From an uncultured Eubacteriales bacterium (GTDB lineage: Bacteria; Bacillota; Clostridia; Peptostreptococcales; Anaerovoracaceae), in NCBI GenBank assembly GCA_900315485.1, contig OMZI01000025.1:1816-65815 (forward strand): DNA of 64,000 nt. The letters are read 5' to 3'. Positions 801 through 38,790 of the stretch are shown here, piece by piece. Made by a program: the position numbers and the translations under genes. The number at the start of each line of letters is the position of its first letter. The stretch's first letter is position 1. A model generated the notes under the pieces. That model made no database searches, was not told the DNA's origin, and worked only from the letters and a program-made list of their open reading frames with translations.

Positions 801-2045
801 ATGGAACTGTATTTTCCGCTTGTACTGGACGGAGCCAACGGGACTGAGCTCCAGAAGAGAGGATATGACAGCAGCAAGTGCACAGAGGCATGGGTGCTCG
901 AGCATCCTGAGGTGATGGTGCAGCTGCAGAGAGAATATATCGAGGCCGGGAGCGACGTCGTATATGCGCCGACTTTCGGAGCCAACAGGGTCAAGCTCGA
1001 GGAAAACGGCATATTCAACCAGGTCGGGGATTTCAACAGGAGGCTTGTAGAGATCTCGAAGAAGGCTGTCGAAAGTGCCGGAAAGGATGCTCTTATCGCA
1101 GGTGACATCGCGACTACGGGCAAATTCCTCGCGCCTCTCGGGGACCTCACTTTCGATGAGCTCTATGACATCTATCATGAGCAGGCTGAGGCGCTTGAAG
1201 AGGCGGGCGTCGACATGTTCGTGGTCGAGACGATCATGACTGTGCCGGATGCGAGAGCCGCTTTGCTCGCAGTCAAAGACGTAAGCGACAAGCCTGTGCT
1301 CGTATCTTTCACATGCGATGAGAATGGCAGGACTCTGACAGGTACTGATGTGTGTGCTGCTCTTGTGATCATGCAGGGTATGGGCATCGATGCTTTCGGG
1401 CTCAACTGCAGCACAGGGCCTGAGGAGATGCTTGCACAGTTTAAGAGACTCGGCGAGTTCGCTGAAGTGCCTCTCGCGGTCAAGCCTAATGCCGGCCTCC
1501 CTGAGGTCGTGGATGGGAAGACTGTCTACAGCTGCACACCTGAAGAGCTCGCGAGCTACACAGACAGGTTCAACGGAGCAGGAGCTGCCATGTTCGGCGG
1601 ATGCTGTGGCACGGGACCTGATCACATAGCCGCTCTGAAGGGTTCGCTCGGCGGATTCAGCCTGAAGAAGCCATGCCCTCAGCACACGGACAGAAACCAG
1701 GTAGTATGCGCGACCGAGAAGGACGCTTTCGTTCTGGACATGGACGCTGCAGGCGGGATCAGTGTGGACACAGTTCTCTCATGTGATGCTGACCTTGAGA
1801 CTAAGATAAAGAAGGAAAACAGGGGCGATGCTGATGTCATCGCAATTGAGATAGCGAAGGATGCAGATCTTGACGAGTTCGGGGCGGCACAGTACGCAAT
1901 AAGAAAACCGCTTTGCATAGCGTGCGAAGATGCGAAGCTGCTCGAAGAGGCGCTGAGGCTGTATCAGGGCAGAGCGATATATGCAGGATCGCTCAGCACA
2001 GATGAACTGGCGCCGATGGTAAGAAAATACGGACTAATAATATGA
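801..2045 (+). CDS. Stand-alone homocysteine S-methyltransferase (MetH Hcy-binding domain) protein with a C-terminal extension of about 125 aa and unclear fold
   Basis: GGAGGG RBS at 791..796. Hcy-domain zinc cysteines are present (GLNCSTGP, GGCCGTGPDHI). No B12-binding DxHxxG motif in this protein. Confidence 0.8.
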   Translation: MELYFPLVLDGANGTELQKRGYDSSKCTEAWVLEHPEVMVQLQREYIEAGSDVVYAPTFGANRVKLEENGIFNQVGDFNRRLVEISKKAVESAGKDALIAGDIATTGKFLAPLGDLTFDELYDIYHEQAEALEEAGVDMFVVETIMTVPDARAALLAVKDVSDKPVLVSFTCDENGRTLTGTDVCAALVIMQGMGIDAFGLNCSTGPEEMLAQFKRLGEFAEVPLAVKPNAGLPEVVDGKTVYSCTPEELASYTDRFNGAGAAMFGGCCGTGPDHIAALKGSLGGFSLKKPCPQHTDRNQVVCATEKDAFVLDMDAAGGISVDTVLSCDADLETKIKKENRGDADVIAIEIAKDADLDEFGAAQYAIRKPLCIACEDAKLLEEALRLYQGRAIYAGSLSTDELAPMVRKYGLII

Positions 2046-2827
2046 AGAGAGAAATACTTGTTGTCAGCTTTGGGACGACTTCGGAAGAGAGCCGTAGACT
2101 TAATATAGGGGCAGTCGAGCAGGCAATAGAGGATGCATGCGGATTGACCGTGCGCAGGGCATTCACCTCGCAGATGATCATCAATATCATCGCAAAGAGG
2201 GAGGGCGTCAGGATCGACAATGTCAGGGAAGCCCTGGACAGAGCTGTACGGGACGGAATAAATACTCTTGTCGTACAGCCTACTCATCTCATGAGTGGCC
2301 TTGAGTATGACAAGCTGAAGGGAATACTGGATGAGTACCTGGGGCATTTTGAGAGTACTGCACTGGGAGCGCCTCTTCTGACAGGCGATGAGGATTTTGC
2401 CGGAGTCGCCGGTGCTCTGGTCGGGGCATGCGCTGAGTATGACGATGGGGAGACCGCTGTCGTGCTGATGGGCCACGGGACCGAAGCGGCGGCAAACGGG
2501 ATATACGACAGAATGCAGGAGACTTTTGCCCGTATGGGAAAGAAGAACTTCTTCGTCGGAACGGTTGAAGCCAGCCCGTCTCTTGATGATGTGATCGCTG
2601 CAACCGGGAAGGGAGATTACAGAAGAGTCGTCCTGAGGCCGCTGATGCTCGTTGCGGGAAACCACGCAGTGAATGACATGGCCGACCCGGATGATCCGGA
2701 CTCGTGGTATTCAAGGTTCACAGCTGCCGGATATGAGACGGTATGTGTGATAGAAGGACTCGGACAGATACCTGCGGTGCGGGATATTTATGCAGATCAT
2801 GCACTGGGAGCAATTGATTCAATCTGA
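2042..2827 (+). CDS. cbiK: Sirohydrochlorin cobaltochelatase, anaerobic type (cytoplasmic)
   Basis: ATGA start/stop overlap with the upstream gene. Motifs VVSFGTT, VVQPTHLMSGLEYDKL and VLMGHGTE. Confidence 0.9.
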   Translation: MKREILVVSFGTTSEESRRLNIGAVEQAIEDACGLTVRRAFTSQMIINIIAKREGVRIDNVREALDRAVRDGINTLVVQPTHLMSGLEYDKLKGILDEYLGHFESTALGAPLLTGDEDFAGVAGALVGACAEYDDGETAVVLMGHGTEAAANGIYDRMQETFARMGKKNFFVGTVEASPSLDDVIAATGKGDYRRVVLRPLMLVAGNHAVNDMADPDDPDSWYSRFTAAGYETVCVIEGLGQIPAVRDIYADHALGAIDSI

Positions 2828-2930: not shown

Positions 2931-2959
2931 TTGATGCAGTAACTATGCGGTGTTACAAT
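2931..2959 (+). promoter_or_regulatory. Candidate sigma-A promoter feeding the riboswitch
   Basis: TTGATG (2931..2936), 17-nt spacer, TGtTACAAT extended -10 (2954..2959). Confidence 0.4.
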
Positions 2960-2994
2960 TACTTGGCACTGCGGAATAATTAATAACATGAAGT

Positions 2995-3185
2995 ATACGG
3001 TGCCCCGTTTCAGCCGGGGAGAATAGGGAAGCGGGTGAGAATCCCGCGCGATCCCGTCACTGTGATAGAGCGTGTCAGTTCATTATGTCACTGGAAAGGA
3101 TCCGTCCTGTTAACAGCAGGACCGGATGATCCGGGAAGGCGAACCGACATGATATGTTCTTCAGCCAGGAGACCTGCCGGTACTT
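2995..3185 (+). promoter_or_regulatory. Cobalamin (B12) riboswitch
   Basis: Conserved core AATAGGGAAGCGGGTGAGAATCCCGCGCGATCCCGTCACTGT (about 3022..3063). B12 box AGCCAGGAGACCTGCC (3163..3178). GTCACTGGAAAGG and CCGGGAAGGC elements lie between them. The expression platform (3186..3381) is not resolved by eye. Confidence 0.9.
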
Positions 3186-3381
3186 AAGTACAGGAGACTT
3201 CCGTCCGCTGCCTGCAGTGCAACCGGCAGACCGGAAAGTTTCCGAGATCACGAGGAATTGGTCGTACAGTTTAATGGAGCCTTGCTCCTTATTTCTGTCA
3301 CCTTTTTTACCGTGAGAAGTAAGAAGGCTTTTTTTATGTTAAGCCCGAAATATTTTCTTGATGGAAAAGGAGAGAAGAAAA

Positions 3382-4608
3382 ATGAAGAAGAAGTTACTGG
3401 TAATGCTGCTGGGAATCACCATGATTTTCTCATTGTCACTCATGACAGCATGCGGAGGCGGAAGCGGTGAAGCTGAGGAGGCAAAGTCTGATGACCCTGC
3501 TGCAGAATGCGCTGCTCTGATCGACGCTATCTACGTTCAGGAGTATACAGATGATACTTATGCTCAGTGCGAAGCTGCCAAGAAGGCATGGGATGCTCTG
3601 ACTGATGAGCAGAAGGAACAGGTAGAGGGCGAGTTCGCTGATCCTGATTACTTCGGAAGAGACACAGGTGATGCATCGAAGGATGATCCTCTGAACCAGG
3701 ATGAGATCGGCGAGAACGAGCTGCTCGTTGTAAGCTTTGGTACATCCTTCAACGAGAGCCGTGCAGAGGACATCGGCGGCATCGAGAAGGCTCTGCAGGA
3801 AGCTAATCCTGACTGGTCTGTAAGAAGAGCTTTCACAGCACAGATCATCATCAACCACGTATATGCACGTGACGGAGAGAAGATCGACAACGTTGATCAG
3901 GCACTCCAGAGAGCTGTAGACAACGGCGTCAAGAACCTCGTTGTACAGCCTACACACCTGATGCACGGAGCTGAGTATGATGAGCTCATCTCTGCACTCG
4001 ATGGATACAAGGATAAGTTCGATTCTGTAAAGGTAGCTGAGCCGCTTCTCGGTACTGTAGGCGAGGATGCAACAGTCATCAACGCTGACAAGGAAGCTGT
4101 TGCAAAGGCTGTAGTTGCTGAGGCTGTAAAGGCAGGCGGATTCGATTCACTTGACGCTGCAGCAGCAGACGGTACTGCATTCGTATTCATGGGACACGGT
4201 ACTTCCCACGAGGCAAGCATTTCATATGACCAGATGCAGGAGCAGATGAAGCAGCTCGGATACAAGAACGTATTCATCGGAACTGTTGAGGGCAACCCTG
4301 AAGATACAGCATTCCCTGCAGTCAAGAAGGCTGTTGAGGATGCCGGATACACAAAGGTCATCCTGAGACCTCTGATGGTAGTAGCAGGCGACCACGCCAA
4401 CAACGACATGGCCGGCGATGAAGAGGGCGCATGGTACTACGGATTCGTCAACGGCGGCGAGTTCGAGGTTGAAGGCGCTGACAAGCCTGTTGATACAGGC
4501 GCCGGGCTCGGAGCTGATAACGTAAGCAGCCAGATCGAAGGACTCGGAAGGATCGCAGACATCCAGAAGATCTACATTGCACACACTGCTGAGGCAATGG
4601 CTCAGTAA
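3382..4608 (+). CDS. Exported lipoprotein with a complete CbiK-like class-II chelatase domain
   Basis: AAAGGAGAG RBS. Signal and lipobox MKKKLLVMLLGITMIFSLSLMTAC. Acidic linker, then VVSFGTS, VVQPTHLMHGAEYDEL and FMGHGTSHE, collinear with CbiK at 2042..2827. Confidence 0.8.
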   Translation: MKKKLLVMLLGITMIFSLSLMTACGGGSGEAEEAKSDDPAAECAALIDAIYVQEYTDDTYAQCEAAKKAWDALTDEQKEQVEGEFADPDYFGRDTGDASKDDPLNQDEIGENELLVVSFGTSFNESRAEDIGGIEKALQEANPDWSVRRAFTAQIIINHVYARDGEKIDNVDQALQRAVDNGVKNLVVQPTHLMHGAEYDELISALDGYKDKFDSVKVAEPLLGTVGEDATVINADKEAVAKAVVAEAVKAGGFDSLDAAAADGTAFVFMGHGTSHEASISYDQMQEQMKQLGYKNVFIGTVEGNPEDTAFPAVKKAVEDAGYTKVILRPLMVVAGDHANNDMAGDEEGAWYYGFVNGGEFEVEGADKPVDTGAGLGADNVSSQIEGLGRIADIQKIYIAHTAEAMAQ

Positions 4609-4675: not shown

Positions 4676-5545
4676 ATGAAAAAGTCAAAAATAATCAAAC
4701 TAATCGCATGTGCTGTGCTTGCGTTCGCCATGCTTGCGCTTGCAGGCTGCGGCGGAGGACAGGCCGCTGATCCTGGAATCGAGGATGGCACTTACGTCGC
4801 GACCTTCACCACGGACAACTCGATGTTCCATGTGAACGAGGCCAATCAGGACAAGGGAATCCTGACTGTCGAGGACGGGAAGATGACGATCCATGTCAGC
4901 CTCCAGTCGAAGAAGATAGTCAACCTGTATCCCGGCCTTGCTGAGGATGCTCAGAAGGACGGGGCAGAGCTCCTGGAGCCGACAACAGACACTGTAACTT
5001 ACAGCGACGGCTACACTGATGAGGTATACGGATTCGATGTTCCGGTGCCTGCGCTTGACGAGGAATTCGACCTCGCACTGCTCGGGACCAAGGGAACCTG
5101 GTATGACCACAAGGTAGTCGTATCTGACCCAGTTCCCGGAGATGACATTCAGGCGGTTATCGGCGGTGAGAAAGAAGCTTCCGGTGACGCTGAAACCTCA
5201 GACAATGGGGAAGAAGCTGCTGCGCCAGATATCGCCGAAGGAGAGCATACAGTAGATGTAGCTCTTGAAGGAGGTACGGGCAAAGCGTCAGTCACTTCGC
5301 CTGCTACCATTAAAGTATCCGGCGACAGCGTCACGGCTGTGATCGAATGGAGCAGTCCGCACTACGACTACATGATCGTAGAAGGCGAGAAGTATCTGCC
5401 TGTGAACGAGGACGGAAACTCGGTGTTTGAGATCCCTGTCCTCACCTTCGACAAGCCGATGACCGTGATCGCCGATACCACGGCAATGAGCGAGCCGCAT
5501 GAGATCGAATATACACTTACATTCGACTCATCATCGGTAAAATAA
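4676..5545 (+). CDS. Lipoprotein with two beta-rich domains of about 115 aa separated by an acidic linker; function unknown
   Basis: Lipobox LALAGCGG. Domain 1 starts EDGTYVATFTTDNSMFHV. The linker is GGEKEASGDAETSDNGEEAAAPD. Domain 2 includes AVIEWSSPHYDYMIVEGEKY. Confidence 0.75.
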   Translation: MKKSKIIKLIACAVLAFAMLALAGCGGGQAADPGIEDGTYVATFTTDNSMFHVNEANQDKGILTVEDGKMTIHVSLQSKKIVNLYPGLAEDAQKDGAELLEPTTDTVTYSDGYTDEVYGFDVPVPALDEEFDLALLGTKGTWYDHKVVVSDPVPGDDIQAVIGGEKEASGDAETSDNGEEAAAPDIAEGEHTVDVALEGGTGKASVTSPATIKVSGDSVTAVIEWSSPHYDYMIVEGEKYLPVNEDGNSVFEIPVLTFDKPMTVIADTTAMSEPHEIEYTLTFDSSSVK

Positions 5546-5654: not shown

Positions 5655-6923
5655 TTGAAGAATAAGTTTACGAGTACAGGAGAATTACATAATAACGACA
5701 GAGCAGGCGCAACAACTGCAATGACTGCAATAACCGGAAAGGCTGGCAAAACTGCAAAGATTTTGCTTGTCCTGATGGCGATGCTGGCTGTTTTGCTGTG
5801 TGCAGGTTGCGGCAGCAGGGATAAGGCAGCTGAAACTATCGAGGAGAAAGCAGACAGCATCCTCGAGGAGCACAAGACGGGATCAATGGAGCTCGAGTAT
5901 GCTGACCAGTTCCATGTCGACTATTACGAGGACGGCATAGCTGTTGTAACTATCGAAGACGGCCTGCAGTACCTGGTGATCGAGGGCTCGGACGAGCTGC
6001 CTGAGTGGCTTCCTGACGAAGAGATCGGAGAGATGACGATCATCTGCGCACCGGCACAGTCTGTCTACCTTGCGGCATCGTCCGCGATGGACCTTATAGA
6101 TGCAGCGGGCGCGCTCGATTCTGTCAAAATGGCAAGCACCCAGGCCAAGGACTGGGGCATCGACAAGATAAGAAAACTTGTGGAAGACGGCACGATACAG
6201 TACATCGGAAAGTACCGCGCGCCTGACTATGAAGCTTTGCTCGAAGGAGATATCGACCTTGCGATCGAGTCCACGATGATATACCACAATCCTCAGATCA
6301 AGGAGGAGATAGAGGAGGTCGGGATACCTGTGCTGGTCGAGAGGTCGAGCTACGAAGCAGACCCTCTGGGAAGGCTTGAATGGATCAAGCTGTACGGACT
6401 GCTGCTCGGAAAGAGCGAAGAGGCTGAGTCCTTCTTCAATGCGGCAGTAGAAAAGATAAAGTCCGTTGACACGGATGCGGTCTCTGAGGCGCCTTCCGTG
6501 GCATTCTTCTCGGTCAATTCGAACGGCTCCGTGGTCGTGAGAAAGCCGGGGGATTACGTGACAAAAATGATAGAAACTGCCGGCGGGACATACGCGCTTG
6601 ACGGCATAACTGAAGAAGAGGACAATGCGCTTTCCACCATGAACATGCAGATGGAAGCGTTCTATGATAAAGCGGTGGATGCTGATATACTCATCTATAA
6701 CAGCACCATCGAGGGAAGCCTTGAAAGCATAAGCGACCTGACGGCGCTGTCTGACAAGTTCGCTGACTTCAGGGCTGTGAAGGAGGGCCGCGTGTGGTGC
6801 ACAGATGCGAGCACCTTCCAGAAGACAACAGGCGTTGCGGATATGACTGTCGAGATGAACAGGATATTCGCAGGCGAAGAGGATGACAGCGATATGGAGT
6901 ATTTCCATAAGCTTGCTAGATAA
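5655..6923 (+). CDS. ABC substrate-binding lipoprotein of the FecB/BtuF (cluster A) type; BtuF-like by riboswitch context
   Basis: Lipobox LLCAGCGS. The track start at 5655 is TTG; an alternative ATG at 5721 gives a normal-length signal peptide. Confidence 0.8.
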   Translation: MKNKFTSTGELHNNDRAGATTAMTAITGKAGKTAKILLVLMAMLAVLLCAGCGSRDKAAETIEEKADSILEEHKTGSMELEYADQFHVDYYEDGIAVVTIEDGLQYLVIEGSDELPEWLPDEEIGEMTIICAPAQSVYLAASSAMDLIDAAGALDSVKMASTQAKDWGIDKIRKLVEDGTIQYIGKYRAPDYEALLEGDIDLAIESTMIYHNPQIKEEIEEVGIPVLVERSSYEADPLGRLEWIKLYGLLLGKSEEAESFFNAAVEKIKSVDTDAVSEAPSVAFFSVNSNGSVVVRKPGDYVTKMIETAGGTYALDGITEEEDNALSTMNMQMEAFYDKAVDADILIYNSTIEGSLESISDLTALSDKFADFRAVKEGRVWCTDASTFQKTTGVADMTVEMNRIFAGEEDDSDMEYFHKLAR

Positions 6924-7016
6924 GTGCGCAGCGTCATGTATATATGAGATCACCATTCAGAATATATGCATGCCGCTAGTCATTATCTGCAAGATATGAG
7001 AAATTGGGAAGTGAAA

Positions 7017-8030
7017 ATGGGAGAAGGCAGGAAATCGAGGATAATGGTAACCTATGCGGCGCTTGCGCTGCTTCTTGCCGTGCTCATAATCGCAAATATA
7101 CTGACGGGAAGCTCGTCGATGAGCGCCGGAGAGGCGGTCAGGATACTTTTCTCGCATGACACTGTGAGCAAGTTCGGCAGGATAGTATGGGACATCCGCA
7201 TGCCGAGGATCCTGGCGGCTGTTTTCCTCGGAGGCGCTCTTTCCGTATCCGGATTCCTGCTGCAGACGTTCTTCGCAAATCCTATCGCAGGCCCGTACAT
7301 CCTCGGAATCTCGTCAGGCGCAAAACTCTGCGTCGCGACTGCCATGATATACGCTTTGCGCGAGGGGATGATGACGAGCTCGCTGATGATGATCATCGCT
7401 GCCTTCGCGGGATCGCTCGCTGTTACGGCAGTGATACTCGTGATCTCGAGGCGCATAAGAAGCATGGCGGTCCTCATAGTCTGCGGCGTGATGGTGGGAT
7501 ACATATGCTCAGCGGTCACTGAATTCCTGGTGACTTTCGCTGATGATTCAAACATAGTCAACCTGCACAACTGGTCGATGGGAAGCTTCTCGGCTGTCAG
7601 CTGGGACAATGTGAAGACTCTTACGGTTGTCGTTGTGCTGGCTGTTATTGCAGCTTTTATGCTGTCAAAACCTATGACCGCTTTTCAGATGGGTGAGCAG
7701 TACGCGAGGAGTGTCGGCGTCAACATAAGATCGTTCAGGATCGGGCTCATTACGCTTTCGAGCCTGCTGTCGGCAACGGTCACTGCTTTTGCCGGCCCTA
7801 TATCCTTCGTTGGCATAGCTGTCCCGCATCTGGTGAGGTCGATAACGAAGACTTCGAAGCCGATCGTGATGGTGCCGCAGTGCTTCCTCGGGGGCGCTGT
7901 GTTCTGCCTGTTCTGCGACCTGCTTGCGAGGAATCTGTTCGCGCCGACTGAGATGAGCATCAGTACGATGACTGCTGTGTTCGGTGCGCCGGTCGTCATA
8001 TTCATGCTGCTCGACAGAAAGAAGAGGTGA
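7017..8030 (+). CDS. FecCD-family ABC permease (BtuC-like)
   Basis: ATG at 7017 after GGGAAGTG. Polytopic membrane protein with FecCD-like motifs (MPRILAAVFLGGALSVSG, GPISFVGIAVPH). Confidence 0.85.
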   Translation: MGEGRKSRIMVTYAALALLLAVLIIANILTGSSSMSAGEAVRILFSHDTVSKFGRIVWDIRMPRILAAVFLGGALSVSGFLLQTFFANPIAGPYILGISSGAKLCVATAMIYALREGMMTSSLMMIIAAFAGSLAVTAVILVISRRIRSMAVLIVCGVMVGYICSAVTEFLVTFADDSNIVNLHNWSMGSFSAVSWDNVKTLTVVVVLAVIAAFMLSKPMTAFQMGEQYARSVGVNIRSFRIGLITLSSLLSATVTAFAGPISFVGIAVPHLVRSITKTSKPIVMVPQCFLGGAVFCLFCDLLARNLFAPTEMSISTMTAVFGAPVVIFMLLDRKKR

Positions 8031-8034
8031 TGCT

Positions 8035-8910
8035 GTGAGTACTGAAAAGAAGAATAGTGCAGCATCAGCTGGCGCATATGCTTCAGAGAAAATGGCTGAT
8101 GCGAACAACAATATGAATAGCGGAACAACGGGCACAGTGATAAGCACCAGCGCCCTCGACACGGGATACGAGAAGAAGGTCGTTGTCAGCGGCGTTGAGA
8201 TAGAGATAAGAAGGGGCGAGATCGCTGCCCTGATAGGTCCTAACGGTGCAGGAAAGTCGACTGTCCTCAAGACGATAGCAGGGCAACTTGACCCGCTTGG
8301 CGGAACAGTATATATAGAAGGCCGGGCGAGGGGCGAATACAATCAGAGTGAGATCGCCCGTATGCAGGCTGTGATGCTGACTGACAGGATGCCGGCTGAG
8401 AAGATGACATGCGAGGAAGCTGTGTCGCTCGGCCGCTACCCGTACACCGGAAGGCTCGGGATACTCTCGGCGGAAGACAGGCGCATCGTCAGGGAGTCGA
8501 TGGAGCTTGTGCATGTCGAAGAGCTTGCGGACCGTGACTACAATGCGATAAGTGACGGCCAGCGTCAGCGCGTTTTGCTCGCAAGAGCCATCTGCCAGGA
8601 GCCTGAGATCATGATACTCGACGAGCCTACGTCGTATCTGGACATACGGCATAAGCTCGAATTCCTTGACCTGCTGAGGTCGCTAGTTGAGGAGAGGCAG
8701 ATAGGAGTCATCATGTCGATGCATGAGCTGGAGCTCGCACACATGGTTGCAGATAAAGTGATATGCATTTCTTCCGAGGGAAGAGTGGAAATGACAGGAA
8801 CTCCTGATGAAGTCTTTGCAGATGACGCGATAAGTAGGCTGTATGGAATGGAAGAGGGCAGGCTTACGGAGCTGTACTCAGGATTTCTTGACAGCATCAG
8901 AAGTAAATAG
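8035..8910 (+). CDS. ABC ATP-binding protein (BtuD/FecE-like)
   Basis: GTG at 8035, 5 nt after the permease stop and behind GAAGAGGTG. Walker A GPNGAGKST, signature SDGQRQR, Walker B ILDEPTSYLD. An alternative ATG lies at 8092. Confidence 0.85.
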   Translation: MSTEKKNSAASAGAYASEKMADANNNMNSGTTGTVISTSALDTGYEKKVVVSGVEIEIRRGEIAALIGPNGAGKSTVLKTIAGQLDPLGGTVYIEGRARGEYNQSEIARMQAVMLTDRMPAEKMTCEEAVSLGRYPYTGRLGILSAEDRRIVRESMELVHVEELADRDYNAISDGQRQRVLLARAICQEPEIMILDEPTSYLDIRHKLEFLDLLRSLVEERQIGVIMSMHELELAHMVADKVICISSEGRVEMTGTPDEVFADDAISRLYGMEEGRLTELYSGFLDSIRSK

Positions 8911-10824: not shown

Positions 10825-12414
10825 GTGATCAATATCGATCCTTTTAACAAAGAAAGATATGACGAGGTGCGCGCGAAATGGGACAGCGTTGCCAAGCCTC
10901 TTAACAGCCTCGGAAGGTTCGAGGACATAACGGCCAGGATCGGGGCTATCCAGGATACGACGAAGCTGGATATCAGGAAGCGCGCTGTGATCATGATGTG
11001 CGCCGACAATGGTGTCGTCGAGGAAGGTATCAGCCAGTCGGGGCAGGATGTCACGGCGGCGGTCGCCGGATGGATGGGCAGAGGAGAGAGCTCGGTCTGC
11101 AAAATGGCCAGAGTCGCTCATGCGGATACGATACCTGTCGACGTGGGCATCAACATGGACGGGAGCCCGAAAGGTGTGCTCGACCGCAAAGTCATGAAGG
11201 GCACCAGGAATTTTGCACTTGAGCCTGCGATGACGGAGGACGAGTGCATGCAGGCTATCGATGCGGGCATCGATGTCGTCTGCGAATGCAGTGCGAAGGG
11301 CTACAAGCTGCTCGCGACGGGTGAGATGGGCATCGGAAATACGACTACCAGCTCGGCTCTGGCGGCGGCTTTGCTCGGACTCGAGGTCAGCGAGGTCACC
11401 GGAAGGGGCGCAGGGCTCAGCACAGCCGGCCTCAGGAAGAAGATGCAGGTCATCCAGGACGCTCTCGACAGATACTGCCCTGAGGATGACGTGGACATAG
11501 AGAGCCCGGAGTATACATCGCAGATGCTTGCGTGCGTAGGCGGGCTGGATATTGCCGGTATGGCGGGAGTCTTTATCGGCGGCGCTATTTACCACATTCC
11601 GGTCATTATTGACGGTTTTATAAGTGCGGTCGCGGCTCTGGTCGCGGAGAGGCTCGTGCCGGGAACTAAGAACTACATGATCGCTTCGCACATGGGCAAA
11701 GAGCCGGGAATGAAGTTCATCCTCGGGATGCTCGGGCTGGATCCTGTGATCGACGGGATGCTGGCTCTCGGCGAGGGCACCGGCGCTGTGATGCTGATGC
11801 CGATGCTGGATACGGCGCTGTCGCTGTACACGGACGGGCTGAATTTTGCCGAGACAACTGTCACACAATACTATGACTTCGAAGAAAATCCGGAGGGCAA
11901 AATGACGGCTCTCATCATCGGATATCCTGACAGCGGCAAGTCAGCGATCGCGGAGAAGATGGTCACTGAGATGTCAGATCCTGATGAGCGTATCTACCTG
12001 GCTACCATGATCCCGTACGGACAGGAAGGCCGGAACAGGATCGAGAGGCACCGCAAGATGAGAGCGGGCAAGGGCTTCAGGACGATAGAAGCGCCATACG
12101 ATATCTGCGATGCGGTTGCTGCTCTGCGGGACGATGAAACTATCAGGCTTGAGGACTCGACTGTTTTGCTCGAATGCGTATCCAACCTCGTTGCGAACGA
12201 GCTGTTTGAGAGGCATGCGGACAGGGACGAGATGGTCGAGAGGCTGTACACGGACATCCGCCACATAGCTGAGCAGGTGAGGAACCTGGTCATCGTGTCC
12301 AACCACTTTGCGATCGAGGAAGGATTCGACGAGGAGACAAGGATGTACGCGGAGACTCTCGATGTGCTGAATGAGAAGCTCAGCAAATTCGCAGATAATA
12401 CTATTAGGTTATGA
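10825..12414 (+). CDS. cobT: Fusion protein: nicotinate-nucleotide:DMB phosphoribosyltransferase (CobT, aa 1 to about 350) plus adenosylcobinamide kinase/guanylyltransferase (CobU, aa about 360 to 529)
   Basis: GTG start after CAGGAG. CobT motif GEMGIGNTTTSSA. The CobU P-loop IIGYPDSGKS lies in the same uninterrupted frame. Confidence 0.85.
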   Translation: MINIDPFNKERYDEVRAKWDSVAKPLNSLGRFEDITARIGAIQDTTKLDIRKRAVIMMCADNGVVEEGISQSGQDVTAAVAGWMGRGESSVCKMARVAHADTIPVDVGINMDGSPKGVLDRKVMKGTRNFALEPAMTEDECMQAIDAGIDVVCECSAKGYKLLATGEMGIGNTTTSSALAAALLGLEVSEVTGRGAGLSTAGLRKKMQVIQDALDRYCPEDDVDIESPEYTSQMLACVGGLDIAGMAGVFIGGAIYHIPVIIDGFISAVAALVAERLVPGTKNYMIASHMGKEPGMKFILGMLGLDPVIDGMLALGEGTGAVMLMPMLDTALSLYTDGLNFAETTVTQYYDFEENPEGKMTALIIGYPDSGKSAIAEKMVTEMSDPDERIYLATMIPYGQEGRNRIERHRKMRAGKGFRTIEAPYDICDAVAALRDDETIRLEDSTVLLECVSNLVANELFERHADRDEMVERLYTDIRHIAEQVRNLVIVSNHFAIEEGFDEETRMYAETLDVLNEKLSKFADNTIRL

Positions 12415-28425: not shown

Positions 28426-29115
28426 ATGGCAAGAGGAAAAGCATACGGAGTAGGCGTAGGCCCGGGAGATCCCGAGCTGATGACACTCAAGGCCTGCAGG
28501 CTTATCAGAGAAAATGAAGTTATGGCAGTTCCGGGCAAGGTGCCGCAGGACGCAGTCGCATACAAGATCGCAGCTGCAGCGGTACCAGAGCTCGCAGACA
28601 AGACTCTGATCCCGATATACATGCCGATGGTCAGGGACCGCGAGCTGATCGCAAAGAGCCACAGGGAAGCTGCAGACACCATAGAGAAGTATCTCGATGA
28701 GGGCAAGAACGTAGTATACCTTACTCTCGGAGACTCCACCATCTACTGCACTTTCAGCTACATCCAGCAAATTCTGGAAGATGAAGGTTATGAAGTAGAG
28801 CTCGTCAGCGGCATCCCGTCTTTCTGCGCAGCAGCTGCAAGGCTTGGAATATCCCTGACAGAGTGGAATGAGCCGCTGCATGTAATACCGGGTCTTCACA
28901 ACACCGAAGGGACACTTGAGTGGCCGGGCAACTATGCCATCATGAAGTCCGCAAGCAAAATGCCTCAGGTCAAGGCAATGCTTGCAAGATCGGGATACGA
29001 TGCGCAGGCAGTAGAGAACTGCAGCATGGAGACAGAGAAGGTGTACCGCTCGCTTGAGGAGATACCGGATGAAGCCGGATACTTCTCGCTCATAATAGCT
29101 AAGGAAAATAAATAG
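28426..29115 (+). CDS. cbiL: Cobalt-factor II / precorrin-2 C20-methyltransferase
   Basis: Motifs YGVGVGPGDPELMTLKA and LTLGDSTIY. Confidence 0.9.
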   Translation: MARGKAYGVGVGPGDPELMTLKACRLIRENEVMAVPGKVPQDAVAYKIAAAAVPELADKTLIPIYMPMVRDRELIAKSHREAADTIEKYLDEGKNVVYLTLGDSTIYCTFSYIQQILEDEGYEVELVSGIPSFCAAAARLGISLTEWNEPLHVIPGLHNTEGTLEWPGNYAIMKSASKMPQVKAMLARSGYDAQAVENCSMETEKVYRSLEEIPDEAGYFSLIIAKENK

Positions 29116-29118
29116 AAC

Positions 29119-29955
29119 ATGATAGAACTGAAAGAACTCACCAAGAAATTCGGTAACTTTACCGCTGTCGACGGTCTCTCCTTCGAGATCGGGACCGGCG
29201 AGTTCTTTGGGCTGCTCGGACCTAACGGCGCAGGCAAGACGACGACCATCAGCATGCTGTCGACTGTCCTGCTTCCTACTTCGGGCGAGATATATATAGA
29301 CGGGGTTAAACTGACAAGAGCTGCTTCCGAGCAGAAGAGGAAGCTCGCTGTCATCACTCAGGAATATTCGATGCGCCAGGATATGACCATGGATGAAGTC
29401 ATGGAGTATCAGGGGCGCCTTTATTTTATGCCGAAAAAGGAGATAAAGAAGAGGTCGGACGAGCTTCTCGAGTTCGCAGGGCTCGGGGACTACCACAGGA
29501 GAGTGGTGCGTCACCTGTCTGGCGGAATGAAGAGAAAGCTCATGATATGCCGCGCCCTGCTTATAGAGCCGGAGATACTCCTCCTTGATGAGCCGACCGC
29601 AGGCATGGACGCACTCTCGAGGCGGCAGATGTGGAACCTCTTGAGACAGGTATCCGGTCAGAACATGACCATCCTCCTTACCACGCATTACATTGAAGAG
29701 GCAGAGGCACTCTGCGACAGAGTGGCCATGATCAACAGAGGCCGGCTCCAGAAGCTGGATTCACCACGTGCACTCATACAGGAGCTCGGCGAATTCACAG
29801 TAGACGAGACCGGAGAAGGCGACCTCAAGAGCACGCACTTCACCACAAGAGAAGAAGCGATCAGATATCTTGAGACAGCACCTTCAGACTCAACACTCAG
29901 GCAGACCACACTCGAGGACGTCTTCGTCGACGTCGCCGGACGCAAGCTGATATAA
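29119..29955 (+). CDS. ABC transporter ATP-binding protein (ABC-2/DrrA-like exporter type)
   Basis: Walker A GPNGAGKTTT, signature LSGGMKRKL, Walker B LLLDEPTAGMD. Confidence 0.85.
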   Translation: MIELKELTKKFGNFTAVDGLSFEIGTGEFFGLLGPNGAGKTTTISMLSTVLLPTSGEIYIDGVKLTRAASEQKRKLAVITQEYSMRQDMTMDEVMEYQGRLYFMPKKEIKKRSDELLEFAGLGDYHRRVVRHLSGGMKRKLMICRALLIEPEILLLDEPTAGMDALSRRQMWNLLRQVSGQNMTILLTTHYIEEAEALCDRVAMINRGRLQKLDSPRALIQELGEFTVDETGEGDLKSTHFTTREEAIRYLETAPSDSTLRQTTLEDVFVDVAGRKLI

Positions 29956-29957
29956 CT

Positions 29958-30689
29958 ATGGGAATTATTACGGTACTTTGGGAAAAATGGGTCGAGTTCA
30001 GACGAGACTTCTATAAGATCACCGTCGCGGCGATGATCTCTCCTTTGATGTACCTGATTATCTTCGGCCTGGGCATCCGTACGACTTCACACGGCGAGCC
30101 GTACATACACTTCCTCGTGCCGGGACTCGTCGCGATGGTCACGATGACCGGCAGCTTCGGCGCGATAGCCCAGAGCATGAGCGTTCAGAGGCTGTATGAA
30201 AAGGCGCTCGACCAGGTGATGGTATCGCCTACGCCTCTGTGGCAGTTCATACTGGGGCAGGTGATAGGCGGCAGCCTGAGAGGCCTGTATGCTGCATGCG
30301 TCATACTCATCCTCACGATACCTGTAAGGCACGGACTCATCTTCAACGGGCTGTCATTTTTCATAATGCTCCTGAACGGGATGGTGTTTGCAACGCTGGC
30401 GCTGGTATTGTCATTCCTTGCGAAGACATACTCGGACGCACCGAGATTCAATACGTACATAATCATGCCGATGTCGTTCCTGTGCAATACATTCTTTTCG
30501 ACTGAAGAGATGCCGGACGGCTTCAGGCAGATCATTGAGATACTGCCGCTGTCTCAGACGAGCGGTATGATAAGAAGCATAGCAAACGGGGAGGCACCGG
30601 GAGCATACGGATTCATAGTGCTCCTTGCATACCTCGTGATCCTCGGCAGCATATCCGTATATTTTATCTATAAGAAGAAGAACCTGTAA
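29958..30689 (+). CDS. ABC-2 type transporter permease
   Basis: Six predicted TM segments, 243 aa, immediately after the ATPase. Confidence 0.8.
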   Translation: MGIITVLWEKWVEFRRDFYKITVAAMISPLMYLIIFGLGIRTTSHGEPYIHFLVPGLVAMVTMTGSFGAIAQSMSVQRLYEKALDQVMVSPTPLWQFILGQVIGGSLRGLYAACVILILTIPVRHGLIFNGLSFFIMLLNGMVFATLALVLSFLAKTYSDAPRFNTYIIMPMSFLCNTFFSTEEMPDGFRQIIEILPLSQTSGMIRSIANGEAPGAYGFIVLLAYLVILGSISVYFIYKKKNL

Positions 30690-31363
30690 TGATCAACGCA
30701 CACAGAAAAGCACTGGTAATACTGTTCATAATGATGCTGACTGCAGCATCATGTATTACTGTGTCTGCGGAGCCGGTGGTCATCAAGGACAAGGAAAAGG
30801 GCATCGGCGTTGAGACCGAAGAGCGCGACCGCTCGCTCCAGGACGGGACTCTTATCTACAGCATGACACCGGTATATCCCGAAGACTTTGACGAGGGGAC
30901 ATACGATGTCGATGCGCTCTCGAGCTCGCAGTTTTTCAAGATCACGCAGGCAAAACTCACGAATGACGGAGGCAGCATAGAGGCCGTCATCCGCATCTCG
31001 AGTACCAGCTACGCATACGTGTATCCGGGGACTGCGGCGGAGGCAGAGGCTGCAGATCAGAGCAAGTGGATACCGGCCGACGAGTCGAGCGGATTCGGAG
31101 AGTTCACGCTTGACGTCGAGGCGCTGAACAAGGAGATGCCGTGCGCTGCATACAGCAAGAAGAAGGCAAAATGGTATGACAGAGATATCGCATTTATCGC
31201 GGAGAGCCTGCCTCAGGAAAACCTCCACGTAGAGCTCTCGGCAGACGGCGGCACCATCGCTGACACGCAGGAAGCCGCGGTCAAAGTCATTTACATAGCG
31301 CTCGCCATCATAATCATCGGCGGGATACTCAATCACTTTATCAAGAAGCGCTTCTATGAGTAG
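30689..31363 (+). CDS. Secreted, C-terminally membrane-anchored protein carrying one copy of the same domain as the 4676..5545 lipoprotein
   Basis: TAATG overlap with the permease. N-terminal signal (ALVILFIMMLTAASCITVSA). Domain DEGTYDVDALSSSQFFKITQAKL...ISSTSYAYVYPGTAAEAEA...KWYDRDIAF. C-terminal TM segment VIYIALAIIIIGGIL. Confidence 0.65.
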   Translation: MINAHRKALVILFIMMLTAASCITVSAEPVVIKDKEKGIGVETEERDRSLQDGTLIYSMTPVYPEDFDEGTYDVDALSSSQFFKITQAKLTNDGGSIEAVIRISSTSYAYVYPGTAAEAEAADQSKWIPADESSGFGEFTLDVEALNKEMPCAAYSKKKAKWYDRDIAFIAESLPQENLHVELSADGGTIADTQEAAVKVIYIALAIIIIGGILNHFIKKRFYE

Positions 31364-31964: not shown

Positions 31965-33302
31965 ATGGCTAACGAAGAGATCCTGAATCTTGCGAATGAT
32001 GTGCTTGATATATCAAGAAACAGGCTCCTTGTGAATCTGCGCTACATGGATGTGGCGCTGAGCATGCACAGGAGGTCTGTTTATGATGGGACCTTTTCGA
32101 CCGACGGGGACAGGATATACTATTCGCCTGAGCACGTACTGAGAGTCTACAGGGATTCGCGTGAGGAGATCACAAGAAACTATCTGCACCTTATCCTGCA
32201 CTGCATCTTCCTGCATCCGTTCGTGGGCACCAGGATCGACAGGAAGAGATGGGACCTGGCCTGCGACATAGCAGTCGAGGCATCCATAAACGACCTCGGC
32301 CTCACATGCACAAGATCTGACAGGGAGGACAGGCAGAACAAATACCTGAGAGAGATAAGGGCTGCGGTAAAAAACCTGACCGCTGAGAAGATATATGCGT
32401 GGCTCGGAGAGATGCAGTACTCTGAAGAGAGGCTCGCATACATGAGAGACATGTTCTCGCCGGATGACCACAGCGTCTGGTATGCGCCTGAGCATAAACA
32501 GGGCACAGCTCCTCAGGCACGCGAGCACATATCCGGCCCGTCTCAGGATGTGAACCTGACCGATGAGGATCAGTGGAAGAACATCGCAAAGCAGATCGAG
32601 ATGGAGCTTGAGATATTCGGCAAAGTCCGCGGCGAGTCCGCGGGGACTCTCGTCCAGAACATAAGAGCCGTGACACGCGAGAGATATGACTACACGGATT
32701 TTCTCAGAAAGTTCGCGGCCATGGGAGAAGAGATAAAGACTTCCGAGGATGAGTTCGACTACATCTACTACACCTACGGCCTGACGCATTACGGGAACAT
32801 GCCGCTCATAGAGCCGCTCGAATACAGAGAGGACCACAGGATCAGGGATTTTGTCATAGCGATAGATACCTCGGGCTCTGTGGCGGGAGAAGAGGTGCAG
32901 ACCTTCCTCCGCAGGACATATGGTATACTGAATCAACAGGGGTCATTCTTCCGCGACATCAACGTCCACATCATCCAGTGCGACGCGGAGATCCAGGACG
33001 ACACCGTGATCACCTGCACAGAGGATTTTGACAGATACCTTGAGACGATGGAGATTAGAGGCCTCGGAGGCACCGACTTCAGACCGGTCTTCACCTATGT
33101 GGACAGGCTCATAAAAGAGGGTGCGTTTTCAGACCTCAAGGGACTTATATATTTCACGGACGGACTCGGGACGTATCCTGAGGCAAAACCGCCGTACAGG
33201 ACGGCGTTCGTCTTCGTTGACGACGGCTACCATCTGCCTGCAGTGCCGGTGTGGGCGATAAGAGTATTGCTGCAGCAGGACGAGCTGCATGAGGGGATAT
33301 AG
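31965..33302 (+). CDS. DUF2201-type protein: N-terminal zincin-like domain plus C-terminal VWA domain
   Basis: HLILHCIFLH sits at the position of the HExxH motif, with the Glu replaced by Leu. MIDAS motif IAIDTSGSV. Confidence 0.75.
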   Translation: MANEEILNLANDVLDISRNRLLVNLRYMDVALSMHRRSVYDGTFSTDGDRIYYSPEHVLRVYRDSREEITRNYLHLILHCIFLHPFVGTRIDRKRWDLACDIAVEASINDLGLTCTRSDREDRQNKYLREIRAAVKNLTAEKIYAWLGEMQYSEERLAYMRDMFSPDDHSVWYAPEHKQGTAPQAREHISGPSQDVNLTDEDQWKNIAKQIEMELEIFGKVRGESAGTLVQNIRAVTRERYDYTDFLRKFAAMGEEIKTSEDEFDYIYYTYGLTHYGNMPLIEPLEYREDHRIRDFVIAIDTSGSVAGEEVQTFLRRTYGILNQQGSFFRDINVHIIQCDAEIQDDTVITCTEDFDRYLETMEIRGLGGTDFRPVFTYVDRLIKEGAFSDLKGLIYFTDGLGTYPEAKPPYRTAFVFVDDGYHLPAVPVWAIRVLLQQDELHEGI

Positions 33303-33344
33303 AGAATAGCAGAAAAGCTGAACTACTGAACGCAGGAGCAGACA

Positions 33345-34917: not shown

Positions 34918-35066
34918 TTGCGGCACTATTATTTCATCAAATACACTGAACATTTTGCATAGACGATATCAATAATTGCGCTGAGAATAATCAGATATAA
35001 TAATTCCATGAATAACGGCGTCAGCCGTATGTTTTTTGATGCTTGCGGGATGTAAGAGGTGTTTAT

Positions 35067-36215: not shown

Positions 36216-36293
36216 GCTGCGAGAAATAAACTGAATTCTATTGTTACAAGGAAGCAATTGAAGTTATTATTAAGAAACAGGAGAAAGTAACTT

Positions 36294-36947
36294 ATGGCAA
36301 CTAAAGAAGAATTACTGCAGAAAATGTCTGACTACGTCTTCGAGATGGAAGACGAAGAGATCGCTGATGTATGTGAAGAGTACATCGAAGCAGGATATGA
36401 TCCTCTCGACGGAATCCTTCACGGTCTTGTTGACGGAATGAACCGCGCAAGTGACATGTACGATCAGGAAGAGTACTTCGTAACCGACCTGCTGCTCTGC
36501 TCTGATGCGATGTACGCAGGACTCGACGTTCTGAGACCGCACCTTCCTGAAGATGCAAGCATGGGCGACTCGAAGAAGGCTGTAATCGGCGTTATCGAGG
36601 GCGACACACACGATATCGGCAAGAACCTCGTCAAGATCATGATGGAGACTGCAGGATTCGAGATGTACGACCTCGGAAGAGACGTTCCTATCGACAGCTT
36701 CATTGAGAAGGCGAAGGAAGTCGACGCTGACCTCATCATGATGTCCACACTGATGACAACAACCATGCCTGGCATGAGAACTGTCATCGAGAAGCTCAAA
36801 GAGCAGGGCATCAGAGACAACTTCAAGGTAATGGTAGGCGGAAGCCCGATCTCCATGAAGTATGCTGAGGACATCGGCGCTGACGGCTATTCAAGAAACG
36901 CTGTTGAGGCTGTAGAAGTAGCCAAGAAGCTCTGCGGATTAGAATAA
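36294..36947 (+). CDS. Methyltransferase cognate corrinoid protein (B12-binding_2 plus B12-binding domains)
   Basis: DxHDxG (GDTHDIGKN), SxL (MSTLMTT) and GG (VMVGGSP) motifs. Confidence 0.9.
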   Translation: MATKEELLQKMSDYVFEMEDEEIADVCEEYIEAGYDPLDGILHGLVDGMNRASDMYDQEEYFVTDLLLCSDAMYAGLDVLRPHLPEDASMGDSKKAVIGVIEGDTHDIGKNLVKIMMETAGFEMYDLGRDVPIDSFIEKAKEVDADLIMMSTLMTTTMPGMRTVIEKLKEQGIRDNFKVMVGGSPISMKYAEDIGADGYSRNAVEAVEVAKKLCGLE

Positions 36948-36976
36948 TAAACCATCACCTGGGAGGAAAAGTCATA

Positions 36977-38779: not shown

Positions 38780-38790
38780 AGGATATAAAT

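Follow-up and report, generated by a model that had tools for sequence, protein, structure and literature searches.

Divergent NEAT domains in cobalamin-riboswitch-controlled operons: a proposed, hitherto undescribed receptor for B12-type cobalt tetrapyrroles on the surface of Gram-positive cells

A 64-kb stretch of DNA from an uncultured bacterium of the Anaerovoracaceae (the window) carries a B12 locus with three copies of an uncharacterised beta-rich domain, two in a lipoprotein of 289 aa and one in a membrane-anchored protein of 224 aa, and the question arises as to what family this domain belongs to and what it does among cobalamin genes. The features of the two proteins are as follows.

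4676..5545, + strand: tandem NEAT-like lipoprotein, 289 aa (open reading frame present; AlphaFold2, Foldseek and family alignment)
4781..5137, + strand: N-type NEAT-like domain (residues 36-154; eight strands; block pLDDT 80-94)
5138..5230, + strand: acidic disordered linker (residues 155-185; pLDDT <50 at residues 165-182)
5231..5530, + strand: C-type NEAT-like domain (residues 186-285; eight strands in AlphaFold2)
30689..31363, + strand: NEAT-like protein of 224 aa with one domain and a membrane anchor (start codon overlapping the permease stop)
30878..31216, + strand: N-type NEAT-like ectodomain (residues 64-176; block pLDDT 91-94)
31274..31342, + strand: C-terminal membrane anchor helix (helix predicted at residues 190-223; conserved hydrophobic core IYIALAIIIIGGIL)

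The 289-aa protein has a canonical lipobox (LAGC) and its Cys25 is invariant (56 relatives). AlphaFold2 predicts two eight-stranded beta domains (residues 38-154 and 189-284; pLDDT 80.0), and this model, the lipobox and the low-pLDDT linker bear out the description in the initial annotation of a lipoprotein with two domains joined by an acidic linker. The 224-aa protein starts with a signal peptide, which is followed by a beta ectodomain and, at the C-terminus, by a membrane helix (residues 190-223); its AlphaFold model has a pLDDT of 82.6. The N-domain had been aligned by eye with the ectodomain of the 224-aa protein, and this alignment holds except for an error of one residue (the true sequence is PGTAAEAEAAD); the similarity has statistical support both from BLASTP (22% aa identity, E 2e-5) and from profile-profile comparison (97.5% probability over 102 columns, E 7.5e-12). 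Homology of the N-domain to the C-domain is not supported by shallow alignments (hhalign probability 18.9%) and is seen only after pooling the alignments of three families, when N-type and C-type match with 97.6% probability (E 3.5e-12). The claim that one domain is present in three copies, two of them in tandem, thus stands.

We assign this domain to the NEAT family. The Foldseek matches of the models in the PDB are nearly all to NEAT domains, and those with E <= 0.001 are to NEAT structures without exception (probability 1.00, target TM-scores up to 0.71), and include for the 289-aa protein IsdH N2N3 (E 1.6e-7), IsdB and IsdX1 (target TM 0.71); the best match of the 224-aa protein is IsdX2 NEAT5 (E 4.7e-4). 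The eight-stranded Ig-like beta sandwich expected of a NEAT domain is present, as judged from the AlphaFold2 strands and the Foldseek superposition. The Pfam gathering threshold for NEAT (32.8 bits) is not reached by the window proteins, by the split domains (13-24 bits) or by the best relative, a fusion protein (31.7 bits). The 289-aa protein scores 19.6 bits, with N-domain residues 47-83 aligned to model positions 19-55, and the 224-aa protein itself has no Pfam NEAT match. Among relatives, 46 of 56 match Pfam NEAT at E <= 0.01, C-type domains have near full-length matches of up to 31.7 bits, and many membrane-anchored members carry a precomputed PF05031 match. Neither the single proteins nor family profiles (A1 and A4) found a NEAT chain when searched by sequence against the PDB, and the link to NEAT is visible only by fold comparison and Pfam. 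On the evidence of the predicted models, all three copies are divergent NEAT domains (PF05031), remote homologues and not threshold members, and the 224-aa protein is a single-domain form of a paralogous membrane-anchored NEAT tandem. The initial annotation had suspected a resemblance to NEAT-type domains, which Foldseek and the sub- to near-threshold Pfam matches across the family confirm, and had left the family unnamed, which can now be corrected; the Pfam and AlphaFold-Foldseek comparisons that it proposed returned NEAT and not a family unrelated to tetrapyrroles. Several other names were discarded, those of NCBIfam since they match only at the signal-peptide level, the Pfam matches to DUF3869 and aBig_2 as noise, and the JGI labels 'FMN-binding' and 'major membrane immunogen' since they are without Pfam support.

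Canonical NEAT domains carry a haem-iron YxxxY motif on strand 8, the first Tyr of which ligates the haem iron, and in haem-binding NEAT domains a Ser-containing lip or 3-10 helix after strand 1 contacts the tetrapyrrole. Read from the sequences, the strand-8 YxxxY is missing in all three copies, which have WYDHKVVV (N-domain), HEIEYTLTF (C-domain) and WYDRDIAF (224-aa protein) at this place. The YAYVY and HYDYM segments, previously noted as reminiscent of haem-binding NEAT domains, are not this motif, since they align together on strand 4 and not on strand 8. In a weak hhalign match of the N-type to IsdC, IsdX1 and IsdX2-N5 (probability 17%, E 1.4e-3) the Tyr of WYD pairs with the second Tyr of the motif, and the C-type gives no usable alignment to the same three proteins. 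An S-x-F(F) segment (DNSMFH, SSSQFF, SSSSFF) is conserved at the place equivalent to the NEAT lip and belongs to the part aligned by Pfam NEAT. The missing YxxxY would fit a ligand that supplies its own axial ligands, although there are no binding data. Two residues were considered as ligands and dropped: a Lys four residues before the WYD Tyr, with conservation below 90%, and as a family-wide ligand His275 of the C-domain HxxxY, which is invariant in the lipoproteins and replaced by Val in the membrane-anchored family.

Conservation of the domain cores is very high: C-type examples are WSSxxYDYM, GNSxFxIP, ADTTAM and EIEY, and N-type examples the SSxFF lip and WYD. This speaks against the domains being passengers without a ligand role, in which case the beta sandwiches would be spacers or wall-spanning stalks that position CbiK and the binding protein. 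Ig-like sandwiches are common as stalks and the linkers are acidic and disordered, but the domain is retained in two independent transporter contexts and its structural neighbours are ligand-binding NEAT domains rather than generic Ig folds, and we give this idea scarcely any credence.

The first of these contexts is the operon that contains the 289-aa gene.

2931..2959, + strand: promoter-like site before the riboswitch (TTGATG-17-TACAAT, extended TG; consensus match only)
2981..3194, + strand: cobalamin riboswitch aptamer RF00174 (101.7 bits, E 2.7e-24, full-length model)
3276..3296, + strand: terminator-like hairpin and T run, between the aptamer and the first gene
3358..4608, + strand: secreted CbiK-type chelatase lipoprotein (lipobox MTAC; Pfam CbiK 5.5e-63)
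5655..6923, + strand: Peripla_BP_2 substrate-binding lipoprotein (lipobox LCAGC; Pfam 2.2e-28)
6966..8030, + strand: FecCD-family permease, nearest BtuC (NCBIfam BtuC 8e-66, 222 bits, under the equivalog cut-off)
7984..8910, + strand: importer ABC ATPase (best NCBIfam matches are haem, F420-0 and corrinoid ABC ATPases)

The aptamer is the sole Rfam match in the window and the hairpin is probably its expression platform; the true start of the CbiK lipoprotein is probably the Met of MKKKLL, a few codons into the open reading frame. The gene order is CbiK lipoprotein, 289-aa NEAT tandem, Peripla_BP_2, FecCD/BtuC-like permease and ATPase behind the riboswitch, and the placement of the lipoprotein with a riboswitch and an importer, as given in the initial annotation, is upheld. 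This order extends from Anaerovoracaceae to Blautia, Roseburia, Sellimonas and Waltera, and in Lachnospiraceae it forms a self-contained five-gene operon. The association with B12 genes predicted for other genomes is found there too: a cobalamin riboswitch lies 1.4-2.0 kb upstream in 67/80 species loci, with 12 of the other 13 cut by a contig end (67/68 evaluable genomes), RF00174 is present in each of the 11 loci scanned with Rfam, and the paralogue sits in a cbi/hem cassette. A binding-protein gene follows the NEAT lipoprotein gene in 67 of the 80 loci, and the late or salvage genes cobQ and cobT/U often follow the importer operon. Natural fusions join the NEAT tandem to Peripla_BP_2 (P0395, P0399, P0493, P0490) and CbiK to a NEAT domain (P0432, P0458). 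The genomic context thus strongly supports the corrinoid or cobalt role that had been suggested, and the ligand remains unproven.

The best solved relatives of the secreted CbiK are Porphyromonas gingivalis FetB (9b86), Salmonella enterica CbiK and Desulfovibrio vulgaris CbiK(P). Its His280, Glu311 and His346 correspond to CbiK His145, Glu175 and His207 and are invariant in 75/75 orthologues; simple corrinoid capture needs no such site, an observation that weighs against a corrinoid receptor. FetB is a surface chelatase that puts Co and Mn into porphyrin and has no reverse chelatase activity on haemin, and the Desulfovibrio CbiK(P) also lies behind a cobalamin riboswitch.

These neighbours bring in a quite different possibility, uptake of haem or iron as in Isd systems, with the NEAT domains binding haem, the CbiK-like lipoprotein binding or de-metallating it (as has long been suggested for IhtB and CbiK(P)) and the FecCD-type transporter importing haem or iron. 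The structural neighbours are all haem-binding NEAT domains, the solved structures nearest to the neighbouring lipoprotein have been deposited or described as haem binders, a weak match to IsdE is seen for the binding protein, a haem ABC ATPase heads the matches of the ATPase, and NCBI calls some relatives 'iron transporter'; sequence cannot separate the binding protein and the ATPase from their haem-type relatives, which also tells against a corrinoid receptor. However, control in 67 of the 68 evaluable genomes is by a cobalamin riboswitch and not an iron-responsive element, the haem-ligating motif is absent from every copy, the paralogue sits in cbi/hem biosynthesis operons, cobQ and cobT/U are frequent downstream neighbours, and FetB does not act in reverse on haemin. 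We regard haem uptake as very improbable.

We propose, with no more than moderate confidence and by analogy with Isd, that the 289-aa lipoprotein receives or relays a cobalt tetrapyrrole at the cell surface. We have established the fold, the homology of the copies, their anchoring signals, their regulation and their gene linkage, and the three NEAT-fold copies are devoted to the B12 pathway. Which ligand is bound, and in which direction it is passed on, are inferences without binding data. The lipoprotein would act outside the cytoplasm of a Gram-positive cell, as a receptor or shuttle attached to the outer face of the membrane, and, because its operon is riboswitch-controlled, would be produced only when cellular cobalamin is low. 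It may bind a cobalt tetrapyrrole, for which an exogenous corrinoid (a cobamide or cobinamide, for example) is the likeliest candidate, and hand it over to the adjacent BtuF-like binding lipoprotein for import by the BtuC-like type II ABC transporter, much as haem moves from NEAT domains to IsdE and IsdF in the Isd system. A third member of the relay would be the secreted CbiK lipoprotein, and the 224-aa protein probably does an equal ligand-handling job for its ABC-2 transporter. The organism is not an obligate scavenger, because a near-complete de novo B12 pathway is encoded in the same window, and this too counts against a corrinoid receptor.

The second context of the domain lies in that pathway, and its genes, with the cytoplasmic chelatase, are given here.

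2042..2827, + strand: cytoplasmic CbiK (NCBIfam sirohydrochlorin cobaltochelatase 3.6e-60)
28426..29115, + strand: cbiL-type methyltransferase, first gene of the cassette (TP_methylase; same position in L081 and L084-L086)
29119..29955, + strand: ABC ATPase of the DrrA/NodI type
29958..30689, + strand: ABC-2 permease of the DrrB/NodJ exporter type

The permease stop and the start of the 224-aa protein share one base (TAATG) and the 224-aa gene is placed between cbiL and sirC, in agreement with the earlier placement of the second copy in the cbi operon with an ABC-2 module. The paralogue is translationally coupled to the ABC-2 transporter, among the cbi/hem genes for the early steps of cobalt insertion. 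A neighbouring FecCD/Peripla_BP_2 importer is present for the NEAT lipoprotein and not for the 224-aa paralogue, which has ABC-2 instead. The conserved cassette consists of cbiL, ABC, ABC-2, cbiK and NEAT membrane protein genes followed by hem genes, with the cytoplasmic CbiK inside it directly before the NEAT membrane protein in L017, L019 and L084-L086, and with a riboswitch at its head in L019, L085 and L086. The importer and cassette modules are direct neighbours, or share a single operon headed by a riboswitch, in L017, L019, L021, L069, L070, L085 and L086, and in L015, L016, L044, L051, L073 and L085 a CbiK-NEAT pair is followed by cbiL and the cassette instead of an importer. Salvage does not explain a paralogue with an exporter-type ABC-2 transporter among early-pathway genes, and this and the CbiK-NEAT pairs without importer are further observations that count against a corrinoid receptor. 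Export of finished B12 by the ABC-2 module was rejected on regulatory logic, because the cassette is riboswitch-repressed at high B12.

In classical cbi operons, as in Salmonella, cobalt transporters stand next to cbiK and cbiL, a position that the cassette takes here, and no CbiM motif was found in the 64-kb window. These observations, with the invariant CbiK metal site, could be read as cobalt-ion handling, with the NEAT-like domains and secreted CbiK binding free surface Co2+ and feeding the transporters in place of CbiMNQO. We consider this improbable: no His/Cys/Asp cluster conserved over all three domain types was found, Peripla_BP_2/FecCD importers carry chelates and not free ions, ABC-2 transporters are exporters, and we know of no NEAT domain that binds a metal ion.

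The invariant chelatase site, the cobalt-inserting activity of FetB as nearest solved relative, and the lack of a CbiM motif also accommodate a bolder scheme, in which the ABC-2 module and the anchored NEAT protein export a metal-free tetrapyrrole (sirohydrochlorin?), the secreted CbiK adds scarce Co2+, the NEAT lipoprotein, binding protein and BtuC-like importer retrieve the product and CbiL continues. A pathway intermediate would then serve as a siderophore-like cobalt carrier, and the first cobalt insertion of B12 synthesis would take place outside the cytoplasm. It would account for an exporter-type transporter and NEAT protein amid cbiL, cbiK and sirC/hem genes, for the adjoining or shared operons of the two modules, for the CbiK-NEAT and NEAT-binding-protein fusions, and for a switch-on at low B12, which suits scavenging and not export of finished B12. 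On the other hand, a cytoplasmic CbiK is also encoded, elsewhere within the cassette itself, and suggests normal intracellular cobalt insertion; cbiM adjoins the operon in at least one Blautia locus (L056); in many Lachnospiraceae loci the importer operon is present and the cassette absent from the roughly 6 kb of flanking sequence inspected per genome; and the substrate of the exporter is wholly inferred. We know of no case in which a B12 precursor is exported and then taken up again, and insertion of cobalt outside the cell is unlikely, if still worth keeping in mind.

The receptor or relay for a cobalt tetrapyrrole that we favour can be compared with several known systems. It shares with the NEAT domains of the Isd, IsdX and Hbp systems (IsdC, IsdX1, IsdX2-N5, IsdH-N3) the eight-stranded sandwich of about 120 residues, the tandem arrangement, a location outside the Gram-positive cell, an adjoining Peripla_BP_2/FecCD type II ABC importer and, by inference, the hand-over logic. 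It differs in that the B12 copies are only sub-threshold in sequence and without YxxxY, are anchored by a lipobox or C-terminal membrane helix and not by sortase (LPXTG), are in an operon under a cobalamin riboswitch and not iron, and partner a secreted CbiK chelatase and B12 biosynthesis genes, with a cobalt tetrapyrrole and not haem as presumed ligand. The combination of iron or haem regulation with an LPXTG anchor that marks an Isd system is not met, Fur boxes being outside the scope of the analysis. BtuG, BtuH and BtuJ of Bacteroidota are surface B12-binding lipoproteins from riboswitch-controlled uptake loci of gut bacteria, and the capture-and-relay layer ahead of a transporter that we propose here would be shared with them. 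Their folds (a beta-propeller in BtuG, the DUF4465 type in BtuJ) are nevertheless unrelated, with none of their structures among the 50 Foldseek matches listed per model and no DUF4465 Pfam match, and they serve an outer-membrane TonB-dependent transporter, in place of the ABC binding protein and single membrane here. An extracytoplasmic CbiK beside a FecCD-type importer is shared with P. gingivalis IhtB/FetB and IhtCDE and with Desulfovibrio CbiK(P) and its ABC importer, the physiological roles of which are likewise unsettled; no NEAT-like partner is described in the papers on those Gram-negative systems, the loci themselves being outside our scope. For the 224-aa protein a working analogy is offered by an ABC module with an anchored beta-rich ectodomain that handles a tetrapyrrole, as in CcmAB and CcmE, although it is related to CcmE in neither sequence nor fold. 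CcmAB is an ABC transporter with a membrane-anchored periplasmic haem chaperone, CcmE, that binds haem covalently for cytochrome c maturation.

Relatives are encoded by at least 583 species genomes and form about 2,000 clusters at 50% identity, with hosts that include gut Blautia, Roseburia and Agathobacter and rumen Anaerovoracaceae. We found no paper that links NEAT domains to cobalamin, but most subscription journals were not covered, including the 2003 comparative genomics of the B12 regulon, and an earlier passing mention is possible. The known surface B12 binders (BtuG, BtuH, BtuJ) are all from Bacteroidota, and a September 2026 review describes extracellular cobamide capture by Gram-positive Firmicutes as wholly uncharacterized. 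Our findings suggest that some Gram-positive bacteria have a surface receptor for cobalt tetrapyrroles of the B12 type that has so far gone undescribed, and the NEAT system is a concrete and very widespread candidate for cobamide capture in Firmicutes. The invariant active site in the secreted CbiK and the linkage of the paralogue to an exporter make it conceivable that part of cobalt insertion is extracellular, and bear on the long-unsettled role of secreted CbiK proteins such as IhtB/FetB and CbiK(P). If NEAT domains have been retooled from haem to corrinoids, annotations such as 'iron transporter', 'major membrane immunogen' and 'hypothetical protein' could be corrected, the chemistry of a well-studied receptor fold would be broader than thought, and there would be a handle on how the two dominant gut phyla compete for B12.

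The features considered here are:
2981..3194, + strand, a cobalamin riboswitch, the sole Rfam match in the window (101.7 bits)
3358..4608, + strand, a CbiK-type lipoprotein (Pfam CbiK 5.5e-63), the first gene after the riboswitch
4676..5545, + strand, a 289-aa ORF with a canonical lipobox (LAGC)
30689..31363, + strand, a 224-aa protein in which a signal peptide precedes one beta domain and a membrane helix at the C terminus (residues 190-223)

The AlphaFold2 model of the 289-aa protein, made from an alignment of 56 relatives (73-97% identity) across which Cys25 is invariant, has a mean pLDDT of 80.0 and two beta domains of eight strands each (residues 38-154 and 189-284), with an acidic linker between them that falls below pLDDT 50 at residues 165-182. 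The model of the 224-aa protein has a pLDDT of 82.6, and the ATG of its gene shares one base with the stop codon of the ABC-2 permease gene ahead (TAATG). The N-domain of the 289-aa protein had been aligned by eye with the 224-aa ectodomain in the initial annotation, and this alignment is supported by both BLASTP (22% identity, E 2e-5) and hhalign of the two families (E 7.5e-12, 97.5% probability over 102 columns). The proposed tandem was hidden at first, with hhalign giving only 18.9% probability between the N- and C-domains from a shallow alignment (and 59% between the C-domain and the 224-aa family), but became clear (E 3.5e-12, 97.6%) when N-type and C-type domains were pooled from all three families, the third being that of a 358-aa protein in locus L017 from another genome. 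The YAYVY segment aligns with HYDYM, both being on strand 4. As judged from these sequence comparisons, the assignment of one domain in three copies is correct.

The resemblance to NEAT domains suspected earlier is likewise borne out. Foldseek comparison of the 289-aa model with the PDB yields nine matches at E ≤ 0.001, every one a NEAT protein; among them are two-NEAT constructs of IsdH and IsdB (311-332 columns, best E 1.6e-7) and the IsdX1 domain (E 1.2e-4, target TM 0.71), and more single domains (Hbp2-N2, IsdX2-N5, IsdC) come after them at E 1.3e-3 to 2e-3. For the 224-aa model the best match is IsdX2-N5 (E 4.7e-4), ahead of IsdX1, Hbp2, IsdA, Hal, IsdC and Shp. Pfam NEAT (PF05031) scores 19.6 bits on the 289-aa protein, below the cut-off of 32.8, and reaches E ≤ 0.01 in 46 of the 56 relatives; alignments to C-type domains are almost full-length (20-24 bits), and the highest score, 31.7 bits, is in a fusion protein. 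Sequence-only searches of the PDB returned no match. Taken together, these results make all three copies remote NEAT homologues. Among the profile-search proteins P0469 and P0503, an N-type NEAT-like domain also follows a Ser/Thr protein kinase (662 aa; Pkinase 24-311, NEAT-like 430-562) and a beta-lactamase2 domain, with assembly chimeras not excluded; the protein with the kinase could act as a sensor through its NEAT-like domain.

Haem-binding NEAT domains have a hallmark YxxxY motif on strand 8, of which one Tyr ligates iron. This motif is absent from strand 8 of all three copies, which read WYDHKVVV, HEIEYTLTF and WYDRDIAF. The only alignment obtained to validated IsdC, IsdX1 and IsdX2-N5 sequences is weak (E 1.4e-3, probability 17%) and places the conserved WYD Tyr opposite the second YxxxY Tyr, not the iron-ligating one. 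Haem uptake, as in the NEAT-based Isd relay of Firmicutes, is unlikely, given both the missing motif and regulation by a cobalamin riboswitch.

In the window the riboswitch is preceded by a promoter-like site and followed by a terminator-like hairpin, and the genes behind it encode, in order, the CbiK-type lipoprotein, the NEAT tandem, a Peripla_BP_2 lipoprotein, a permease (best NCBIfam match BtuC) and an ATPase. At least 583 genomes (one scanned per species) encode a relative, and searching 1.84 billion cluster representatives with a profile finds 1,995 clusters at E ≤ 1e-3. The taxa extend from Anaerovoracaceae (Mogibacterium) to many Lachnospiraceae. Among 80 loci fetched from those genomes, RF00174 is on the coding strand in all 11 tested with Rfam, and an HMM built from these matches and run on all 80 places a riboswitch 1,386-1,992 nt upstream of the NEAT tandem gene in 67. 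Twelve of the other 13 end at a contig edge about 225 nt or less from the CbiK start; L064 alone has upstream sequence in which the HMM found no riboswitch. The CbiK lipoprotein gene, or whatever part of it the contig keeps, is directly upstream in 80/80, and downstream are genes for the binding protein (67 loci), permease (64), ATPase (62) and the late-pathway enzymes cobQ (41) and cobT/U (34). Blautia and Roseburia carry the five genes as a self-contained operon amid unrelated genes.

Several loci have further features. The window encodes a fused CobT and CobU protein (10825..12414, 529 aa; phosphoribosyltransferase residues 3-348, cobinamide kinase/guanylyltransferase residues 360-525). In Waltera acetigignens the NEAT tandem and binding-protein genes are separated by a Clostridiales-1 RNA (RF01699, 97.7 bits; L075, 6940..7155). 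In a Blautia locus (L056, 7438..8100) the importer operon is directly followed by a second riboswitch of the cobalamin class and a gene of the cbiM type (MHIMEGYLP), so at least this genome has the NEAT operon plus a classical cobalt transporter. Three loci labelled Bacteroidaceae, Prevotella or Bacteroidales (L050, L076, L078) carry Lachnospiraceae-like copies (60-63% identity, same gene order) and are more likely mis-binned contigs than true Bacteroidota genes.

The 224-aa protein is the single-domain form, seen in an Anaerovoracaceae lineage, of a paralogue represented by the L017 358-aa protein, which runs from a signal peptide through a 224-aa-like domain, a linker and a C-type domain to a membrane anchor at its C terminus; this family is large, and many members have a precomputed PF05031 match. 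Its conserved cassette starts with cbiL, a DrrA-like ATPase, an ABC-2 permease, a cytoplasmic cbiK and the NEAT membrane protein, and continues with hemA/sirC, hemC, cobA/hemD, hemB and hemL; a cobalamin riboswitch heads it in L019, L085 and L086. The window order is cbiL, ABC, ABC-2, 224-aa protein, sirC, DUF2201 and AAA. The importer module and the cassette are adjacent or in one operon in seven loci (L017, L019, L021, L069, L070, L085, L086). The DUF2201 (VWA-like) protein and 500-aa AAA ATPase, right after sirC within the cbi/hem operon (31965..34847), are conserved in L081 and L082 and are reminiscent of cobalt and magnesium chelatases, which have AAA and VWA subunits.

The best-supported interpretation is a relay of the Isd kind, adapted for a cobalt tetrapyrrole. 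At low B12 the NEAT lipoprotein would be made, catch its ligand outside the membrane and deliver it for import via the BtuF-like binding protein, and the anchored paralogue probably does the equivalent job beside the ABC-2 transporter. The corrinoid- or cobalt-related role proposed initially is upheld as to genomic linkage, through the riboswitches and the cbi/hem cassette, with the ligand only inferred: there are no binding data, and exogenous corrinoid is the simplest candidate in view of the BtuC-like permease, the logic of riboswitch control, the adjoining salvage genes and the stand-alone operons.

The three surface lipoproteins very likely work together, since natural fusions join the NEAT tandem to Peripla_BP_2 (P0395, P0399, P0493, P0490) and the CbiK lipoprotein to an N-type domain (P0432, P0458). 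Secreted CbiK keeps the full chelatase site, with His280, Glu311 and His346 (His145, Glu175 and His207 in S. enterica CbiK) invariant in 75/75 orthologues. Its closest solved relative is FetB, a P. gingivalis surface chelatase that metallates porphyrin with Co and Mn. Neither iron nor haem changes transcript levels of the P. gingivalis iht operon. Desulfovibrio-type CbiK(P), like secreted CbiK here, has a cobalamin riboswitch ahead. A B12-controlled metal chelatase on the outside of a Gram-positive cell, its activity inferred from the conserved site, is in itself unexplained. A corrinoid relay does not explain why this site is invariant, why the partner among the early-pathway genes is of exporter type, or why there are genomes in which the CbiK-NEAT pair precedes cbiL, not an importer. 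Extracellular cobalt insertion into an exported precursor, then re-imported, accounts for all three, but has no known precedent, and a cytoplasmic CbiK is also present in the paralogue cassette; we consider it possible but doubtful.

Downstream in the window (35043..41566), several ORFs of URO-D-type methyltransferases, recognised from their start sequence and matching L081 genes, cluster with genes for a corrinoid protein that binds B12 (36294..36947) and for a reductive activator resembling RACo (36977..38779). The cluster probably encodes a methyltransferase system dependent on corrinoids and, with it, a major B12 consumer of the organism.

Database names of the NEAT-like proteins are 'hypothetical protein', 'iron transporter' and 'major membrane immunogen', and full-text literature searches found no paper in which NEAT domains are tied to cobalamin. 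A 2026 review describes extracellular cobamide capture in Firmicutes as "entirely uncharacterized". The fold itself is already known; what appears to be new is that this receptor and relay fold is redeployed in the B12 pathway.
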